Notes: generated from the letters alone by a model not told the origin. A DNA stretch of 64,000 bases from a bacterium (GCA_027592325.1 JAQCKO010000005.1:202-64201), one strand, 5' to 3'. Counted from the first letter of the stretch, positions 10,135 through 60,090 are shown. Made by a program: numbers and translations.

Positions 10135-10923
10135 CTAAATCTGAACCTCGGGTTGTGGCGTGAGAATCTCGGGACCTTTTTCGGTAATCGCTATCGTTAC
10201 CTCAAAATGCGCTGCATGCTTTCCATCGACAGTCACAATTGTCCAGCCGTCATCGGCTTCCTGTACTTTATGCGTTCCAAGCGTAATCATTGGCTCGATG
10301 GCAATACACATACCGACCGCTAACGTACTGTCGCCAAAACGTTTTGCCCGATAATTGGGAATATTTGGGGGTTCATGCACAGCGTGGCCAACGCCGTGAC
10401 CAACAAGCGCCTTGACAATCCCGTACGTTTTTTGATCGATCGCATCTTCAACAGCGCCCGAGATATCGCTGACCATTTTCCCAGCAATCGCGGCATCCAC
10501 GCCCGCATACATGCTCGCACGCGTATCCCGCATGAGCTTCAGATGCTCTTCACGTACATTCCCAACCGGCACGGTTACCGCCATATCGGTACACAGGTCT
10601 TTATACCAACAGCCAATATCAAGACCAACAATATCGCCTTCCTCTAAGGCAATATCACGTGTTCCAACACCGTGCACAACTTCATGATTACGCGAAATAC
10701 AGACCGTGGAAGGAAATGGAATCTGACCGCCACCCTTATAACCAAGAAATGAGGGCTTCCCGCCGCCCTCTTCAATCACGTTTTTTGCAATTGCATCGAG
10801 CTCATGCATTTTTACGCCAGGCTTCACTAAATCAATTGCCGCCTGTAATGCGCGCGAAAGAAGTGCACCGCCTTCACGCATGTACTGAATGTCTTGTGCT
10901 GTTTTGATATTCGCCATAAGCAT
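10135..10923 (-). CDS. map: Methionine aminopeptidase type I
   Basis: The HGVGHAVHEPP and metal-ligand motifs are present. Confidence 0.9.
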   Translation of the reverse strand: MLMANIKTAQDIQYMREGGALLSRALQAAIDLVKPGVKMHELDAIAKNVIEEGGGKPSFLGYKGGGQIPFPSTVCISRNHEVVHGVGTRDIALEEGDIVGLDIGCWYKDLCTDMAVTVPVGNVREEHLKLMRDTRASMYAGVDAAIAGKMVSDISGAVEDAIDQKTYGIVKALVGHGVGHAVHEPPNIPNYRAKRFGDSTLAVGMCIAIEPMITLGTHKVQEADDGWTIVTVDGKHAAHFEVTIAITEKGPEILTPQPEVQI

Positions 10924-12946: not shown

Positions 12947-13384
12947 CTATGCGTTAATCGTTCCGCCCGCAGCAGTGATTTTTTCTGAAGCTGCCTTAGA
13001 AACTTTGCATCCGCTCACTTTGAGAGAAACAGTCACTTCTCCATCTGAGAGGATTTTTACACCATTTTTCTTCGTCGCGATAAGATTTTTCGCTTTAAGC
13101 GTATCCGGGGATACCAATTCCCCCTTCAGAAACACAGCTGCTAAATCACCCACATTTACGGTTGCAGGTTTATTATACGGGGAATTGAATCCGCGGAGCT
13201 TTGGTGTTGCAAGCATAAGCTTACGCATTCCAAGCCGCTGAAATCCGCTTGCACCTGATCGTGATTTTTGTCCCTTCATTCCGCGTCCTGATGTCTTTCC
13301 AAGGGTTGATCCGATTCCGCGTCCAAGGCGTTTTTTTGTCTTTTTTGAGCCGCTTTTTGGGCTCAGATTATGTAATGACAACAT
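12947..13384 (-). CDS. rplO: 50S ribosomal protein L15
   Basis: The sequence is conserved. No L30 gene sits between rpsE and rplO. Confidence 0.9.
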   Translation of the reverse strand: MLSLHNLSPKSGSKKTKKRLGRGIGSTLGKTSGRGMKGQKSRSGASGFQRLGMRKLMLATPKLRGFNSPYNKPATVNVGDLAAVFLKGELVSPDTLKAKNLIATKKNGVKILSDGEVTVSLKVSGCKVSKAASEKITAAGGTINA

Positions 13385-13390
13385 AGGGCG

Positions 13391-14041
13391 TTATTCTGCT
13401 TTTTTGTCAGATGATTTTTGTCCCTTCTTCGCCTTTAGTAAAGGCGCTTCAGATGCCTGTACAGCCTTCGCTGGAGTTTTTACCTGCTTAGGCTTGCTCA
13501 CATTGTTCGTAACATTACGTAGGCCAGATAGTGCATGCATCATTGCCTTCGCATTGTTGATTTTGCTTTTTGAACCAAGAATTTTTGATACAACATTCGG
13601 TACACCAGCAAATTCAAGGACCATACGAGCAGGTCCCCCTGATTTAAGCCCAGTTCCTTTTGGAGCTGGCTTAAGCATCACCTGCGCCGCACCAAATTTC
13701 ATGTCAATTCTGTGCGGGATTGTTTCATTAACAATAGGCACGGTGATAAGATTTTTCTTAGCCTGTCGGAATGCTTTTTCTACTGCTGCCGCTACATCGG
13801 TTCCTTTTGCAACACCCATTCCAACACGTCCTTTTTTATCGCCAATGATAAGACACGTACGAAAACTCATCCGTTTTCCTCCTTTCGTAACACGCGTTAC
13901 ACGAGCAAGTTCCAAAATCTTTTGCTCGAACTCACGCGGTTCACGTTTTTCACGACGACCATTTCCCTTTCGGCGACGTACACGACGCTCACTTGCGCCC
14001 GTGAAGCTTTTATTATCTTGTGTTTTTGTTTCTTCCGGCAT
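13391..14041 (-). CDS. rpsE: 30S ribosomal protein S5, with an R/K-rich N-terminal extension
   Basis: S5 dsRBD and C-terminal domains are present. Confidence 0.9.
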   Translation of the reverse strand: MPEETKTQDNKSFTGASERRVRRRKGNGRREKREPREFEQKILELARVTRVTKGGKRMSFRTCLIIGDKKGRVGMGVAKGTDVAAAVEKAFRQAKKNLITVPIVNETIPHRIDMKFGAAQVMLKPAPKGTGLKSGGPARMVLEFAGVPNVVSKILGSKSKINNAKAMMHALSGLRNVTNNVSKPKQVKTPAKAVQASEAPLLKAKKGQKSSDKKAE

Positions 14042-22228: not shown

Positions 22229-23407
22229 TTATTCAACAATCTTCGTTACAACTCCTGCACCAACAGTTCGTCCACCTTCACGAATAGCGAAACGCATCTG
22301 CTCTTCCATCGCTACTGGAACGATAAGGTTGATTGTTGCGTTTACGGTGTCGCCAGGCATAACCATCTCTGTTCCCTCAGGAAGAGCGGTTACTTCACCT
22401 GTTACATCTGTTGTTCGGATGAAGAATTGCGGTTTGTATCCCTTGAAGAATGGCTTGTGACGCCCACCTTCTTCTTTGGTAAGTGCATAAAGCTCAGCTT
22501 CAAACTTTGTATGCGGAGTTACTGTTCCTGTCTTTGCAAGAACCATTCCACGCTCTACATCTTCTTTCTTGATTCCACGAAGAAGAAGTCCAGCATTGTC
22601 TCCTGCCATACCTTTATCGAGCTGCTTGTTGAACATCTCGATTCCTGTAACAACAGTCTTCGTTGTGTCGCGAAGTCCAACCATTTCGATTTCATCGTTT
22701 AGGTTGATCATTCCACGCTCGATACGACCGGTTACAACCGTTCCACGGCCTTCAATTGAGAAAACATCCTCAATCGGCATAAGGAAATCCTTATCAGTAT
22801 CACGCTCTGGCGTAGGAATGTATTCATCGAGTGCTTTGAGAAGCTCAGCGATGTGACCCTGGTGAGTCGCATCTCCTTCAAGTGCCTTAAGCGCTGATCC
22901 ACGAATAATTGGTGTTTCTGCACCCGGATATTCGTACTGATTAAGAAGGTCTCGTACTTCCTCTTCCACAAGATCAACAAGCTCAGCGTCATCAACCATG
23001 TCGACTTTATTGAGGAAAACAACAATCTTAGGCACTCCAACTTGGCGTGCTAGAAGAATGTGTTCACGTGTCTGAGGCATAGGACCATCAGCCGCTGATA
23101 CCACAAGAATAGCGCCATCCATTTGCGCAGCACCTGTAATCATGTTCTTTACATAGTCCGCGTGACCTGGACAGTCAACGTGTGCATAGTGGCGTGCTTC
23201 ACTTTCATATTCAACGTGTGAAGTAGAGATGGTGATTCCACGCTCTCGCTCCTCAGGAGCTTTGTCGATTTGGTCGAATGCCTTCTTTTGTCCTCCTGGA
23301 GAGAACTGTAAAGAGAGTGTCGCCGTAAGCGTCGTCTTTCCGTGGTCAACGTGACCAATGGTTCCAACGTTAACGTGTGGCTTTGACCGGTCAAAATGTT
23401 CTGCCAT
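22229..23407 (-). CDS. tuf: Elongation factor Tu
   Basis: The motifs [14 protein letters not shown] and NKVD are present. The start is [13 protein letters not shown]. Confidence 0.95.
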
Positions 23408-23534
23408 AACGAAGTTAACTTCTAGGAAATTCCTTAAATTAAGTGCGGCGATTGTAACAAAATCCTTAAAATAATGCAAGTGCAACGTAGTAAAATTTTG
23501 TCAAGCTGATGCTTTAAAGCGTTTTTTGGCTAAA

Positions 23535-23562
23535 GCAAGAGAAAATCCCTAGTTTTCCAGGG
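23535..23562 (-). terminator. Intrinsic terminator after the Phd-like gene
   Basis: In minus sense the hairpin auccctgg-aaaa-cuagggau is followed by a U-rich tract. Confidence 0.5.
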
Positions 23563-23563
23563 A

Positions 23564-23983
23564 TTATTCTAGGCTTTCAAGATAGAAGCGTTCTTCGGCT
23601 TCAAATGCGCCATCAGGCTCCTCTTCACGTCCGGGAATTGGCTCATACGCCCGATCACCCGTCGTTGTCTGCGTCTTTTCGATAGGGATTCGTGTCTCAG
23701 TTTTGGCAACAGGAAGGCCAACTGGGGCTTCCTGCATAACCGACCCCGGTGCTTCCGATGATGCAGTAAGCGCTTCTTGTCTGGGCTCGTGCTTTTGCTC
23801 AGGTGGCGGTTGCAGTGCTGGAGAAGACGCAGCGTCCGCGACAGGCTGCCCGCCAGAGCGAAGCGATGCATACGTCTCAAACGGAACAATGACCACCGGA
23901 TGCTCGGCTGTTTCATTCGTCACAATCACAGTCTCACCCGTTTTCTGTGCAAGTCGCAAAATACGCGCAAATTGGTCGTTCAT
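23564..23983 (-). CDS. Protein with an N-terminal Phd/YefM-like (antitoxin-type) domain and a P/E/A-rich disordered tail
   Basis: FARILRLAQKTGETVIVTNETAEHPVVIVPFETYASL fits the Phd/YefM beta-alpha pattern. The C-terminal 80 aa are low complexity. Confidence 0.45.
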   Translation of the reverse strand: MNDQFARILRLAQKTGETVIVTNETAEHPVVIVPFETYASLRSGGQPVADAASSPALQPPPEQKHEPRQEALTASSEAPGSVMQEAPVGLPVAKTETRIPIEKTQTTTGDRAYEPIPGREEEPDGAFEAEERFYLESLE

Positions 23984-24124
23984 ATGTGGTGGTAAAAGGA
24001 TGTAGAGGTCGTAAAGGCGCAGAAGTTTTAATAGTTATAAAGGCTTCTACGCCATTATGCGCATCTTAGAGAAAAAGGTGAAAAGGGGCAAGCGGGGGTG
24101 CTCGAGATGTTGAAAAACGAAGGA

Positions 24125-24260
24125 TCGGCCTTCGGCCTCGTTGGAAGCGTTGGTTCCTCGTCACCCCTGCGCAGGCAGGGGTCCAGCGTATACCGATTGC
24201 ACTTCGATGGATTCCTGCTCCCTGCTGCGCAGGGACAGGCTTCGCAGGAATGACGAATAA
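24125..24260. repeat. Cluster of GC-rich REP-like hairpins (aatgacg family), copy R1
   Basis: The cluster includes acccctgc-gcag-gcaggggt and attcctgc...gcaggaatgacg. It is homologous to the cluster at 59961-60090. Confidence 0.75.
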
Positions 24261-24409
24261 TTACTGCATCCAACGGCTCTGCAGCCTCATACACGTTCAC
24301 CTCGAGCGAGTGAGCGCAGCGAACACAACGTCTTCAACGAGCAAGGAAAAGCCGATCTATCCAAAGAGAAATCCCCCGCTACCAGGTGGCATTGGGGGAT
24401 TACGAGAGC

Positions 24410-24877
24410 CTAGTTCCCCCTTCGCTTCGCGCGTACTCGAGCAATGAGCCCATTATCGCCGAAGAGCGCATGACTGGCGGAAGAGGGCGTTATGATCAAG
24501 CCTCCCGTGCGAACGACGAATTTCTGTCGAAAAACTCGCGCATGGAGGCCTGCTGGAATAGGATCCTGGCACAGGAGAGCCACGAGCGGGGCATAGTCGA
24601 TCTCCTCTTCGATGGCAGTCAGCATTTCTGCCCAGCACCACGTTACTGACGTATCCTTTCCCGTCCAAGGCAACAGGATGAGAATGTCCGGCCTCACACA
24701 CGCAACTTGCTCTGCCACCTCTTCTGGAAAGCGAGCTATGCACGGTCTTCTCATATCGGTATAGACCATTGATTCTTCCGTACTGCCCAACGGAAACCAC
24801 GCATCGAGCGCCCGCCTTCCCGCATCCGCTTGCGCACTCCCCGCTCCAAGAATGTATTGAACCGTCACATGGCGCAT
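24410..24877 (-). CDS. Hypothetical protein in a high-GC island, with a strong RBS
   Basis: In minus sense AAAAAGGAGAGGTAAGCA precedes the ATG. The protein reads MRHVTVQYILGAGSAQADAGRRALDAWFPLG.... It has no recognisable family. An overlapping alternative frame at 24453-24944 looks non-protein-like. Confidence 0.45.
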   Translation of the reverse strand: MRHVTVQYILGAGSAQADAGRRALDAWFPLGSTEESMVYTDMRRPCIARFPEEVAEQVACVRPDILILLPWTGKDTSVTWCWAEMLTAIEEEIDYAPLVALLCQDPIPAGLHARVFRQKFVVRTGGLIITPSSASHALFGDNGLIARVRAKRRGN

Positions 24878-25002
24878 TGCTTACCTCTCCTTTTTCAGAA
24901 TGAACGTTACAGGTAACCTTAGCGCATTTCACGCCTCGCGTCAACCTGACACAGAAATAAAACCTTTGAAGCCTTTACGACCTTTTACCGACTTTCCAAA
25001 CG

Positions 25003-25031
25003 AAAAACCCCAAGCTCCGCAGAGCCGGGGG
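25003..25031 (-). terminator. Intrinsic terminator after the alpha-CTD-like gene
   Basis: In minus sense the hairpin ccccggcucugcggagcuugggg is followed by UUUUU. Confidence 0.55.
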
Positions 25032-25056
25032 TACGACGAGGGCGACTGGGTGGAGC

Positions 25057-25545
25057 TCAGTTGCCGGGCAGCTGATCACGAATCTCAGCGATATCCATGT
25101 CAAGATTCAGAGCGAAATCATCCAATACCCTCTTGATCTCACGGAGGAGCTTGGTCCCTATGCCCTTCGTTTTGCGGATCTCAGCCTCGCTCTTCTCCGC
25201 AATATGCCAGACGTAGACAAACCCTGCATCCGACAGAATATTCTGTAGACGCACGGAAATTTCCAACTTCCCGACTGACTGGCTGAGCGCCTCCACCTTC
25301 GTGAGTGCCCTTGGGTTGCTCGGCAAATTATCTGCAGTCTGAGTCTGCGGAGCCTTCTTTGGTTCATCAGGAACGGGAAGGAGCATCAACGGACCGATGG
25401 TACGGGCTCCTACTCGCGTCGGTCGAACCTTAACGGTGACCACGACCCCCAGAAGTTGCAGCAAAGCCTCGAAGTCTTGTGTGTTCTCAGCTCCCTCGGG
25501 CAGCTCGATAACCTTGTCGCCAAACTCAATCTTGTACGTAGCCAA
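25057..25545 (-). CDS. Free-standing protein with a C-terminal RNA polymerase alpha-subunit CTD-like helix-hairpin-helix domain
   Basis: LEISVRLQNILSDAGFVYVWHIAEKSEAEIRKTKGIGTKLLREIKRVL parallels E. coli alpha-CTD [48 protein letters not shown]. The N-terminal 90 aa are unrelated to the RpoA NTD. Confidence 0.6.
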   Translation of the reverse strand: MATYKIEFGDKVIELPEGAENTQDFEALLQLLGVVVTVKVRPTRVGARTIGPLMLLPVPDEPKKAPQTQTADNLPSNPRALTKVEALSQSVGKLEISVRLQNILSDAGFVYVWHIAEKSEAEIRKTKGIGTKLLREIKRVLDDFALNLDMDIAEIRDQLPGN

Positions 25546-25601
25546 TGAACACCTCTTTTTGCAGCTTATGCTGCGCTTGAGTAATTGTCTTTCGACGAAC
25601 T

Positions 25602-25630
25602 ATCATACGAATTAAACAATGATTTGTCAA
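25602..25630 (-). promoter_or_regulatory. Near-consensus sigma70 promoter for the alpha-CTD-like gene
   Basis: In minus sense it reads TTGACA, a 17-nt spacer, then TATGAT. Confidence 0.55.
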
Positions 25631-25662
25631 CAAAAAAAGCAGGCCCGAAGGCCCACTCTTTT
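25631..25662 (-). terminator. Intrinsic terminator after fusA
   Basis: In minus sense the hairpin gggccuucgggccugc is followed by UUUUUUU. Confidence 0.6.
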
Positions 25663-25717: not shown

Positions 25718-27817
25718 TTACCCATTCCGCTTCTCCTTTATCTCTTTTGCCACATTATTTGGCACTTCTTGGTATTCATGGAATTCCATTGAATAGCTCG
25801 CACGTCCTTGCGTCATGCTGCGGAGCGATGTTGCGTATCCGAACATTTCAGAGAGAGGAACAATCGCGCGTACAATCTTAATATTTCCACGATCACTCAT
25901 TTCCTGAATTTGTCCGCGTTTTCCATTGAGGTCACCTACAACGGTTCCCATCGATTCTTCCGGCGTCACAACCTCAACTTTCATGGTTGGCTCAAGAAGT
26001 ACCGGACTTGCATTACGAAGAGCTTCTGCAAGCGCCATTGAACCTGCCATCTTGAAGGCTGCTTCATTTGAGTCCACTTCATGGTATGAACCATCGTAAA
26101 GACGTGCCCTTACATTAATGACCGGATATCCAGCAATAACCCCACGATCCATCGCTTCACGCATTCCCTTTTCAATCGCCGGAATATATTCCTTCGGAAT
26201 AGAACCTCCTTTAATTTCATCAACGAATTCAAATGTCTGTGCATCTTCATCCGCGCCTTCCACTGGAGCGAGCGGCTCAATACGGACCTTTGCGTGACCA
26301 TATTGTCCGCGTCCTCCAGACTGCTTAACGTACTTTCCTTCTGCTTCCGCGCTGCTCTTAATCGTTTCACGATAACTCACTTGCGGCTTTCCAACATTCA
26401 CTTCTACGCCGAATTCACGCTTCATACGGTCGATAATAATATCGAGGTGAAGCTCTCCCATTCCAGATACGATTGTCTGATTGGTTTCTTCATCGGTTCG
26501 CACACGGAAGGTTGGGTCTTCTTCTGCAAGCTTTGAAAGCGCGATTGAAAGCTTTTCTTGATCTGCTTTTGTTAGCGGTTCAAGCGCTTGCGAGATAACT
26601 GGTTCTGGGAAGGTAATTGACTCAAGCACGATTGGCTTTGCAGGGTCACAAAGTGTGTTTCCAGTCGTCGTATTTTTTAGTCCCACAGCTGCCGCAATTT
26701 CTCCGGCAAACACTTCGTTTACATCTTCACGTGAATTTGCATGAAGCCGCACAATACGTGAAACACGTTCCTTTTCTCCTGTTGACGCATTGAGTACATA
26801 TGTTCCTGCCTTCAGCATTCCTGAATACACACGGAAGAACGCAAGTTTTCCAACGAATGGGTCTGTTGCGATTTTGAACGCAAGCGCCGAAAACGGCTCT
26901 TCATCTGCTGCTTCTCGCTTTTGTACATTTGTCTCGTCGTCTGGGTGAAACCCTTCAACCGCTGGAATGTCAAGTGGTGATGGAAGATAGTCCACAACGG
27001 CATCGATCATCATTTGCACACCTTTATTTTTCAGTGCCGATCCACAAAGCACTGGAACGATATCTAGACGGATCGTTGCCGCGCGAAGGACACGCTTTAA
27101 ATCTTCTATCGCAATCTCTTCTCCGGCAAGATACTTCTCCATGAGCGATTCATCATTTTCCGCAATCGCTTCTACAAGTTTTGCACGCCATGTTTCTGCT
27201 TGCTCCTTGTACTCATCTGGAATATCGATTTCATCAACTTGACGTCCTTCTTCATCTCGGTACATGAAGGCCTTCATCTTCAAAAGATCGATAATCCCCT
27301 CAAACGCATCTTCTTTTCCGATCGGAAGCTGAATTGGATAGGCCTTCTTGGTAAGACGCGCGTGAATTGAATCAAGGTCTTTGAAGAAATCTGCCCCAGT
27401 TCGGTCTAGTTTATTGATATAACAAATACGCGGTACTTTGTACTTATCAGCTTGGTGCCAAACAGTTTCAGACTGCGGCTCTACACCTGCTACACCGTCG
27501 AATACGGTTACTCCGCCATCGAGTACGCGAAGTGAACGCTCTACCTCTACCGTAAAGTCTACGTGACCAGGTGTATCGATGATATTAATTCGGTGATCCT
27601 TCCAGAAACAGGTGGTTGCTGCAGCAGTAATGGTAATTCCGCGCTCACGTTCTTGCTCCATCCAGTCCATTTCCGCTTCCCCTTCATGAACCTCACCAAT
27701 GCGATGCTTTTTACCAGTGTAAAAGAGAACACGCTCGGTTGTGGTTGTTTTACCGGCATCAATATGGGCGATAATTCCGATATTACGTGTTCGCTCAAGG
27801 GGATATTGTCGGGGCAT
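25718..27817 (-). CDS. fusA: Elongation factor G
   Basis: The motifs [17 protein letters not shown] and the EF-G domain IV/V signature are present. Confidence 0.95.
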
Positions 27818-32478: not shown

Positions 32479-32555
32479 AATCTCATGTTCTTCAAGGAGC
32501 GTCTAGGTTGCATCGCTTTGCTCGTTGAAGACGTTAACATCGTACGTTTCAAAAA

Positions 32556-32580
32556 AAAATCACCGAAGGTGAATAACTGG
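32556..32580 (-). terminator. Hairpin plus U9 about 100 nt upstream of the murA start (leader terminator or end of an sRNA)
   Basis: In minus sense ucaccuucggugauuuuuuuuu. Confidence 0.4.
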
Positions 32581-32799
32581 GCGCGGCGCGTAACGCGAAA
32601 TTTGGTTCATACCACATGTGGGCGTAGCGAGCAGCTTGCGATGGAAAGAGCCCTTGCCCCATCTATCGGTCGATTGCACACCATGAACCGCTGAATCCCC
32701 GAGTCTTTCGGTGTCTAGAAAGGGTCGAACAATGTGATCATCGTTTTTATTGGATTCTCAAAAAATGCTTAGCCAATTCGCGTGTACGCGCGGCGCATA
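32581..32799. mobile_element. MITE-like element with 19/20-bp terminal inverted repeats
   Basis: The left terminus is GCGCGGCGCGTAACGCGAA at 32581-32599. The right terminus TTCGCGTGTACGCGCGGCGC at 32777-32796 is its reverse complement with 1 mismatch and 1 indel. The interior is about 177 nt. Confidence 0.5.
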
Positions 32800-32815
32800 G
32801 TAAGCGTACCATACT

Positions 32816-32856
32816 CAAAAAGAAAACGCCCACGAAGGGCGGCTTCTTTTTTTTCG
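32816..32856 (-). terminator. Intrinsic terminator after ndk (also reads as plus-strand)
   Basis: The hairpin cgccc-acgaa-gggcg has T-runs on both sides. Confidence 0.6.
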
Positions 32857-32865
32857 CTCAACAGA

Positions 32866-59960: not shown

Positions 59961-60090
59961 GATCGTTATTCGTCATCCCTGCGAAGGCAGGGATCCATCC
60001 CGCCCTTCGCGAAGAGCGGGATCCAGCGTATGCAAGATAATTTGATAGATTCCCGCCTTCGCGGGAATGACGCATTCGCGTCTATAAGAA
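59961..60090. repeat. Cluster of three GC-rich REP-like hairpins (aatgacg family), copy R2
   Basis: The hairpins are atccctgc-gaag-gcagggat, atcccgc...gcgggat and attcccgc-cttc-gcgggaatgacg. They yield spurious ORFs such as ...DSRLRGNDA.... Confidence 0.75.

Follow-up and report, generated by a model that had tools for sequence, protein, structure and literature searches.

In textbooks, the C-terminal domain of the RNA polymerase alpha subunit (alpha-CTD) figures as the tethered module through which the bacterial enzyme docks on DNA and activators. We describe here a gene for a free-standing protein with this domain, which lies between fusA and tuf (positions 23535–25662) in a 64,000-nucleotide stretch of bacterial DNA (GCA_027592325.1 JAQCKO010000005.1:202-64201; hereafter the window). 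The protein has the same fold as the alpha-CTD of RpoA (PF03118; for example, Escherichia coli and Caulobacter crescentus, PDB 9zum, 1lb2 and 3k4g), with 34–44% identity over ~65 residues, and shares with it the helix-hairpin-helix motifs, the equivalents of R265, N268, G296 and K298 and a preceding flexible linker. It differs from RpoA in that an unrelated domain of ~58 amino acids (aa) takes the place of the N-terminal domain (alpha-NTD) and in being encoded by a single gene outside the alpha operon. Small alpha-CTD proteins of phages (Rhodococcus phage Finch, Mycobacterium phage Mithril and many uncultured Caudovirales) are likewise short, with the alpha-CTD as their only recognisable domain, but their match to the window protein is limited to the alpha-CTD part, with a query template-modelling (TM) score of about 0.4 and 13–24% identity. 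We conclude that the gene encodes a genuine free-standing RNA-polymerase alpha-CTD preceded by a novel N-terminal domain (N-domain), and our data support the view that the 2.3-kb stretch around it is a lineage-specific, non-core accessory insertion splitting the str operon. Our best explanation, in which our confidence stands about midway, is that this insertion brings in an alpha-CTD protein that may bind DNA as an untethered regulator or compete with the alpha-CTDs of the polymerase itself, together with two passenger units, namely an open reading frame (ORF) designated ORF155 and a gene for a Phd-like protein.

The original prediction, made by a model from the sequence alone, had placed an alpha-CTD at the C-terminus of this gene product, and PF03118 (RNA_pol_A_CTD) indeed matches residues 85–142 above its gathering score (43.0 bits versus a cut-off of 23.8, E=3.7e-11). 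All phmmer matches in the PDB at E<=0.01 are RpoA CTDs, the best being that of Caulobacter RpoA (7ye1_A, E=5e-11). AlphaFold gave a predicted local distance difference test (pLDDT) score of only 35 from the single sequence; the model used here was built with a 12-sequence family alignment and reached a pLDDT of 82 overall, 94–97 over most of the CTD and 73–87 over residues 1–58. In Foldseek, the modelled CTD was superposed on solved alpha-CTDs of Caulobacter, E. coli and Bacillus subtilis (9zum, 1z3e, 3n4m and 1lb2) with root-mean-square deviations of 0.7–1.0 A over 64–67 residues and target TM scores of 0.84–0.93, and the predicted model shows the two helix-hairpin-helix motifs of the alpha-CTD fold. 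Residues 60–77 are predicted to be disordered and would form a flexible linker of ~20 aa. The N-terminal 73 residues match no Pfam family, and an N-domain profile found nothing below E=0.25 among PDB sequences. The protein has R, N, G and K at the equivalents of R265, N268, G296 and K298 (in the motifs VRLQN and GIGTK) and L at that of S299, which we take to be the DNA-contact residues in E. coli numbering. Across the family described below, the R265-equivalent Arg is nearly invariant and the G296-equivalent Gly is invariant.

A HMMER search of 1.84 billion representative proteins with the alpha-CTD protein as query yielded 976 matches at E<=1e-3. Among the best 150 representatives, a hidden Markov model (HMM) of the N-domain identified 13 proteins of 150–225 aa, all composed of N-domain, linker and alpha-CTD, one of which carries two N-domains. 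The window protein scores 58.9 bits (E=3.5e-18) with this model, which includes it. Identity is 27–32% across the 11 members of the family alignment, and two members, P0019 and P0073 (MFA5945370.1, 28% identity to the window protein), align over their full length to query residues 4–160 with ~30% identity. The shared signatures are IG...PDV...L...A in the N-terminal part, ALGRL, YVW(Q/H)xAEK in the CTD and a C-terminal ...DQLP. One member is named 'alpha C-terminal domain-containing protein' by NCBI, and our literature searches turned up no functional work on stand-alone alpha-CTD proteins. On these sequence comparisons, the window protein is a member of an uncharacterised family of small proteins. 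A genome-collection scan with the family alignment recovered mostly canonical rpoA genes and a single true member, identical to P0019; the metagenome-assembled genome (MAG) studied here was not recovered. Word-indexed homolog searches with all three gap proteins returned only the queries themselves and one relative of the Phd-like protein.

Many other proteins among the best 150 matches carry two to eight alpha-CTD copies, and Pfam scans of nine of them showed ResIII/helicase or T5orf172 domains fused to the alpha-CTD, as well as two- to six-copy arrays. Within this group, P0005–P0013 include tandem arrays of three to six copies, a ResIII/Helicase_C fusion of 1,433 aa and a T5orf172 nuclease-like fusion. 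Small alpha-CTD proteins were also found among predicted phage structures. Given its occurrence in fusions with helicase and nuclease domains, in tandem arrays and in phage proteins, the alpha-CTD is better viewed as a widely reused module than as one confined to RNA polymerase. At the sensitivity used, four viral-contig scans contained no relatives of the family, and phage GenBank yielded two Staphylococcus records that match the CTD alone. A phage or defence origin of the gap genes was rejected, since the PHROG search gave no significant match, the viral scans were empty and the sole PADLOC match was a weak one of the PglW (BREX kinase) model to the alpha-CTD region.

The genomic context of the family was compared in ten independent loci, the window and nine others that were fetched (L006, L009, L010, L012 and L096–L100). 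The neighbours in the nine other loci all differ: Fic and NUDIX genes, a SIR2-HerA pair 2–4 kb away, methyltransferase and NusA genes, TsaD and an AspRS-like gene, an NYN-domain gene, ABC transporter genes and glycosyltransferase genes. None of the nine family genes lies between fusA and tuf, and none adjoins rpoA, rpsD, rplQ or ribosomal-protein genes. No neighbour shared among the compared loci was detected by tblastn and blastp, and inspection of these loci revealed no genes of integrases, transposases or phages. A conserved three-gene module was rejected, since tblastn and blastp comparisons of ORF155, the Phd-like protein and ORF186 (a 186-aa ORF of a related genome, see below) with the other family loci and their small neighbours were empty.

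The alpha-CTD gene and ORF155 differ in composition from the rest of the window. Their G+C contents at third codon positions (GC3) are 0.63 and 0.58, respectively, versus 0.33–0.50 for 31 trusted window genes, and their codon log-likelihoods are lower than those of all trusted genes. The excess is not expression-linked codon bias, because the sampled ribosomal-protein and elongation factor (EF) genes of the window have GC3 values of 0.33–0.48. The family gene is a GC3 outlier, the highest or near-highest locally, in nine of the ten loci (0.63–0.88 versus roughly 0.4–0.65 for its neighbours). Some small ORFs of no known function that adjoin family genes are also GC3-rich (L009 5451–5843; L012 3882–4340 and 5038–5640). 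In five of the nine non-window loci, a tRNA gene lies within 700 nt of the family gene (Table 1), a frequency far above that expected from tRNA density alone. Gene position and codon usage suggest that the alpha-CTD gene may move horizontally as a single-gene unit, which would explain its unusual position between fusA and tuf.

As had been predicted, the alpha-CTD gene has a near-consensus promoter of its own, the best in the region (Table 1), and a terminator-like hairpin with a T-run past its stop codon. A leader motif located just downstream of the -10 hexamer recurs at the equivalent position of four further family promoters. We described the combination by a composite pattern (TTGAC[AT], 15–18 nt, TANNNT, 1–9 nt, T[CT]GTCG[AC][AT]), defined after eight loci had been inspected. 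Of the ten independent family loci, five have the strict pattern, and the rest of the 1.06 Mb of fetched DNA lacks it, with 0.03 occurrences expected per shuffle. By itself, the 8-mer shows no enrichment in the window (28 matches versus 27 expected). A short hairpin often begins with the motif: the window has GTC-GAAA-GAC, L098 has TTGTC-GCAA-GACAA, and both L012 and L099 have GTCGA-N5-TCGAC. We regard the shared promoter and leader as a lead rather than as a proven element. A promoter and leader of much the same kind (TTGACA, 17 nt, TACGTT, then CTGTCGCAA) belong to the gene that comes after the family member in L098 (1200–1350), a hint that a small regulon, and not the family gene alone, could carry the leader motif.

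That fusA and tuf are not adjacent was correctly recognised in the original prediction, although the gap measures 2,310 bp rather than the 1.9 kb given there. It contains a repeat element and three small genes, each of which appears from its flanking signals to form its own transcription unit. The insertion would thus consist of three monocistronic units, each with a promoter and a terminator-like hairpin, plus one polymorphic repeat resembling a miniature inverted-repeat transposable element (MITE), with ORF155 and the Phd-like unit as probable unrelated passengers beside the alpha-CTD unit. Comparison with other loci supports a non-core addition: as noted above, none of the other family loci is at a fusA-tuf junction, and ORF155 and the Phd-like protein have no homolog and one homolog, respectively. 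The segment had also been viewed as an acquired island. This view is half right. The segment is non-core and lineage-specific, and the alpha-CTD gene and ORF155 are atypical in composition, but three features recur on the contig of the nearest relative (L001), namely the Phd-like gene, the promoter of the slot that ORF155 occupies (the variable slot) and the terminator of the alpha-CTD gene; the insertion therefore predates the split of the window and L001 lineages.

The spc genes of the window are not followed by rpoA, as had been predicted: the cluster ends at map, and infA, rpmJ, rpsM, rpsK, rpsD, rpoA and rplQ are found neither in the window nor in the ~10 kb of the 82.8-kb scaffold that was fetched beyond it. 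A Pfam scan of ten larger window ORFs revealed no rpoA, and a tblastn search of the window with E. coli RpoA detected nothing but was insensitive, as it missed the alpha-CTD gene as well. It had been speculated that the alpha-CTD protein might be part of a split alpha subunit, in which rpoA would encode only the N-terminal assembly domain and the gap gene would supply the CTD in trans. The missing rpoA and the alpha-like layout of the window protein, with a domain, a linker and a CTD, agree with such an arrangement. However, the absence of rpoA from one scaffold is uninformative on its structure, and the N-domain of ~58 aa has no Pfam match, including to the alpha-NTD families PF01000 and PF01193. 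With the rpoA models TIGR02027 and NF003513, the protein scores 41–51 bits versus cut-offs of 228–302 and covers only profile positions ~228–323, so it is not a full-length RpoA. The gene is located between fusA and tuf and not in an alpha operon (rpsM-rpsK-rpsD-rpoA-rplQ), and none of the nine other family genes adjoins rpoA, rpsD or rplQ. Moreover, the family is sparse, the N-domain is duplicated in one member, so foreign a codon composition would be unusual in a core gene and the alpha-CTD is widely reused outside RpoA. The split-subunit proposal thus finds no support, and we consider it extremely improbable.

In the explanation that we prefer, the alpha-CTD module would bind DNA as it does in RpoA, that is, in the minor groove of A/T-rich, UP-element-like DNA, as homology suggests, and the N-domain would presumably provide oligomerisation or partner contact. 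The protein may then act as a free-standing transcription factor or compete with the polymerase's alpha-CTDs at UP-like sites, and its gene is probably autoregulated or post-transcriptionally controlled via the conserved element at its transcript start. In keeping with DNA binding, the equivalent of Arg265 hardly varies among family members. Several points weigh against this explanation. The K298 position (K, R, H, S, G or Q) and the S299 position vary in the family, and some members may therefore not bind DNA. The leader motif is not A/T-rich and is no obvious alpha-CTD site; moreover, the composite pattern is post hoc, and of the two loci that were added later, L099 has only the core GTCGAA and the hairpin (the strict pattern failed) and L100 has nothing. 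The compared loci provide no co-occurrence support for any function, the high GC3 and the tRNA adjacency hint at a mobile gene with a possibly quite different role, and the host genome's own rpoA was not found within the window and the fetched part of the scaffold. Instead of acting on DNA, the protein could be a decoy or mimic, a free alpha-CTD that titrates proteins docking on alpha-CTDs (activators, Spx-like proteins, or phage takeover and ADP-ribosylating proteins), so that host transcription is modulated or the polymerase is protected during infection. The model cannot be told apart in fold from alpha-CTDs whose structures were determined with Spx, CAP and sigma region 4 bound, phages also encode small alpha-CTD-only proteins, the atypical composition suggests mobility, and one family locus lies near the SIR2-HerA pair mentioned above and another adjoins the Fic gene. 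However, no consistent link to defence genes is seen across the ten loci, the viral contig collections and sequenced phages yielded no relatives at the sensitivity used, and the best-conserved residue is the DNA-contacting Arg265 equivalent rather than the activator-contact patches, as we take the E. coli determinants to be. We consider the decoy unlikely.

Another explanation, which we entertain only tentatively, concerns the origin of the segment: it, or at least the alpha-CTD gene and ORF155, would have been left by a horizontally transferred mobile element, and these genes would serve that element, not the host. The foreign GC3 and codon values of both genes, the GC3 excess throughout the family and the frequent adjacency to tRNA genes point in this direction, as do the slot content, which differs between close relatives, and the insertion polymorphism of the MITE-like repeat in the same gap. 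However, the family loci have in common only the single alpha-CTD gene and no gene block, they showed no integrase, transposase or phage gene, and no viral or PHROG matches were obtained. As a statement on origin, this explanation is compatible with a free DNA-binding regulator or alpha-CTD competitor. A bolder proposal, which we think very unlikely, is that a free trans-acting alpha-CTD is a regular part of promoter recognition in these small-genome bacteria, either replacing a CTD missing from RpoA or serving as a third, untethered UP-element reader, and that its gene is a mobile, self-regulated cassette inserting by highly transcribed loci (tRNA genes and fusA/tuf).

Table 1. Features of the fusA-tuf gap and its boundaries (window positions), and tRNA genes near family genes in other loci (positions in the locus named)
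Feature	Position	Strand	Remarks
fusA (EF-G, 699 aa)	25718–27817	minus	ORF listing; Pfam families GTP_EFTU, EFG_III, EFG_IV and EFG_C on the identical L002 gene; upstream boundary of the insertion
Intrinsic-terminator-like hairpin directly after fusA	25632–25654	minus	GGGCC-TTCG-GGCC(T), then GC and T7; read from the sequence, not listed by the consensus scan
Promoter of the alpha-CTD gene	25602–25630	minus	TTGACA, 17 nt, TATGAT; consensus scan, 11 of 12 positions, best site of the region
Leader motif TCGTCGAA	25591–25598	minus	Begins 3 nt past the -10 hexamer; fits T[CT]GTCG[AC][AT]; same place in four other family promoters
Stand-alone alpha-CTD protein gene (162 aa)	25057–25545	minus	TTG start; O3B64_01770
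N-terminal domain, residues 1–58	25372–25545	minus	Predicted beta-hairpin and two helices; family-specific
Alpha-CTD domain, residues ~81–156	25078–25305	minus	PF03118, PDB phmmer, Foldseek
Terminator-like hairpin and T-run after the alpha-CTD gene	25004–25033	minus	Consensus scan; conserved at the start of the L001 contig
Promoter of the variable slot	24916–24944	minus	TTGACG, 17 nt, TAAGGT; within a 46-nt block with one mismatch to L001
ORF155	24410–24877	minus	ORFan in the variable slot; frame-specific coding signal, foreign composition; not called by NCBI
Terminator-like hairpin after ORF155	24363–24401	minus	AATCCCCC...GGGGGATT and T-rich tail; conserved in L001
MITE-like insertion, 225 bp	24120–24344		In the window and L002; missing from L003 and L004; the L005 contig breaks at its edge; imperfect terminal inverted repeats of ~22 bp
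Inner palindromic unit, 99 bp	24158–24256		Inside the 225-bp insertion; TCGTCAYYCCTGCG ends; the 'REP' of the original prediction
Promoter region of the Phd-like gene	24054–24091	minus	TTGCCC-17-TAAGAT or TTCACC-17-CATAAT; block conserved in L001
Phd-like protein gene (139 aa)	23564–23983	minus	O3B64_01765; conserved N-terminal 44 aa, variable Pro/Ala/Glu-rich linker, conserved acidic C-terminus ...EERFYLESLE
Terminator-like hairpin after the Phd-like gene	23535–23565	minus	AATCCCTGG-AAAA-CTAGGGATT
tuf (EF-Tu, 392 aa)	22229–23407	minus	ORF listing and annotated product; downstream boundary of the insertion
tRNA-Val	L006 9790–9866		Near family gene
tRNA-Ala	L010 44–119		Near family gene
tRNA-Glu	L012 7141–7215		Near family gene
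tRNA-Glu	L096 1850–1924		Near family gene
tRNA-His and tRNA-Arg	L099 20–171		Near family gene

ORF155 had been described as an ORF of no known family with a strong ribosome-binding site, and both properties hold: the Shine-Dalgarno sequence GGAGAGG lies 6 nt before the ATG, and no homolog was found among 5.8 billion proteins and no family match in Pfam, NCBIfam, PHROG or PADLOC. In L001, whose flanks are 76–88% identical to the window, the slot promoter, the Shine-Dalgarno region and the terminator are conserved, but the slot holds the unrelated ORF186 in place of ORF155. Common motifs of the two ORFs suggested by eye (VRPD/VRPG and FRQK/FRGK) do not amount to detectable homology (BLASTP E=27; shuffle-controlled global and local z scores of -0.9 and 0.6), and a metagenome scan with the 29-nt slot promoter found nothing. 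We read the L001 comparison as pointing to a conserved expression slot whose content may be exchangeable or very fast-evolving. Alternatively, ORF155 may be no gene but a chance open frame in a GC-rich spacer, or the slot may produce a non-coding RNA; the NCBI pipeline does not call the ORF, homologs and family matches are lacking, and a 163-aa ORF overlaps it in another frame. However, frame 0 of ORF155 clearly has the best codon log-likelihood in a model trained on window genes (-0.10 versus -0.73 and -0.53; -0.47 for the frame of the overlapping ORF), an ORF of L001 starts at the corresponding position, likewise enclosed by the conserved promoter, Shine-Dalgarno sequence and terminator, and there is no Rfam match. 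We consider it rather improbable that ORF155 is not a gene.

The prediction of a 139-aa protein with a Phd/YefM-like N-terminus and no adjacent toxin gene holds in part. The N-terminal match to PF02604 (Phd/YefM) exists but is weak and below the Pfam threshold (21.7 bits versus a gathering score of 29.8, E=1.8e-4; residues 4–41 on profile positions 12–48), and the sole homolog among 5.8 billion proteins, P0004, has an equally weak match (18.2 bits, E=2e-3). A two-sequence profile of the protein found no Phd/YefM chain in the PDB, and a metagenome scan with its alignment found nothing. There is no toxin gene next to it: downstream are the terminator-like hairpin and tuf, and upstream, 426 nt away, is ORF155, which has its own terminator and no toxin-family match. 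The protein differs from the type II antitoxins of the Phd/YefM family (PF02604) in that its match leaves out the first beta-strand of the profile and the conserved ends are separated by ~50 variable low-complexity residues, and its gene differs from theirs in having its own promoter and terminator and no toxin gene. The gene lies directly upstream of tuf in L001 as well. Relative to L001, the counts of synonymous and non-synonymous differences are 14:4 (N-terminal 44 codons), 12:22 (linker, where a 10-residue indel occurs as well) and 16:9 (C-terminal 44 codons). From the synonymous excess, we conclude that the gene is real and under purifying selection at both ends. The antitoxin fold is a tentative assignment; the protein is possibly an orphan small protein with a Phd/YefM-type N-terminus and might function as an orphan antitoxin-like regulator. 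In the genome that encodes P0019, a Fic/Doc-family gene (L006 9151–9723, L007 3258–4035) directly precedes the tRNA-Val and alpha-CTD genes, and in L007 a 55-aa ORF is located just upstream of it. Doc phosphorylates EF-Tu. A Doc/Fic link between the Fic gene near this one family member and the Phd-like gene adjoining tuf is speculation drawn from a single locus.

The repetitive extragenic palindromic (REP) cluster of the original prediction is a real repeat, but it is part of a single 225-bp insertion/deletion polymorphism with an inner 99-bp palindrome (Table 1). The empty sites in L003 and L004 are otherwise 99.9–100% identical to the window, and these assemblies come from the same population. 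The sequence is TTTTCC|TT...TT|CGTTTTT where the element is present and TTTTCC-AC-CGTTTTT where it is missing, with no unambiguous target-site duplication at the junction. The element folds better than 200 of 200 shuffles (DNA fold z = -3.5), and for its inner unit 4 matches were counted versus 0.04 expected. A sister copy of the inner unit (~100 bp, TCGTCAYCCCTGCGAAGGC-type inverted ends) at 59970–60073 adjoins tRNA-Lys and tRNA-Arg genes, and a solo copy of the terminal repeat is present at 32520–32536. With its terminal inverted repeats, absence of coding capacity, multiple copies and insertion polymorphism, the element is MITE/REP-like. Similar to repeats of this type, it is short, non-coding and strongly self-complementary, occurs at several intergenic sites and is polymorphic in presence, but the window contains just two complete inner units and a single solo copy of the terminal repeat, and no partner transposase was identified.

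Entries of the MAG GCA_027621985.1 (O3B64_01765 and O3B64_01770) are identical to the proteins of the region, which also match the 82.8-kb ENA scaffold. The gene order on the minus strand is rpsL, rpsG, fusA, the gap, tuf and rpsJ, followed by the S10 and spc genes, secY, adk and map. The gene for S5 directly abuts that for L15, with no L30 gene between them, and the cluster stops after map (window 12947–14041 and 10135–10923). Missing ribosomal protein L30 is typical of the Candidate Phyla Radiation (CPR/Patescibacteria). The host is an uncultured small-genome bacterium and, because it has no L30 gene, we take it to be a probable member of this group. The 418-aa ORF with a TTG start at tuf is an upstream extension produced by the ORF listing, the actual product having 392 aa. 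The GC content in 300-nt windows is 0.51–0.58 across the whole of 23600–25550, versus a mean of 0.47 for the window; a distinct block of 58–60% GC at 24300–24900, as first described, was not seen, the 300-nt windows peaking at 0.55–0.58. A non-coding RNA in this GC-rich stretch was rejected, because Rfam gave only chance-level matches over the gap at both the gathering and E<=10 thresholds, and a tRNA scan of the gap found none. Upstream of tuf (23408–23540), past the terminator-like hairpin of the Phd-like gene, there are a TTGACA sequence and a possible TTGCAT-17-TACAAT promoter, neither of which passed the consensus scan. Elsewhere in the window, a hairpin-rich, gene-free stretch of ~390 bp (32479–32865) separates the EPSP synthase and NDK genes and has no Rfam match at E<=0.01.

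ORF155, the Phd-like gene and the repeat are ordinary accessory content, and the alpha-CTD gene is a modest curiosity that leaves the current understanding unchanged pending knowledge of its function. The consistent GC3 excess and the tRNA adjacency raise the possibility that it is a single-gene mobile cassette, and it occurs in hosts with very few recognisable transcription factors. A conserved family in which the alpha-CTD is detached from the polymerase, joined to a small domain of no known function and provided with its own conserved promoter and leader would offer a natural test of what an untethered alpha-CTD can do, be it as a competitor, a decoy or an autonomous factor.

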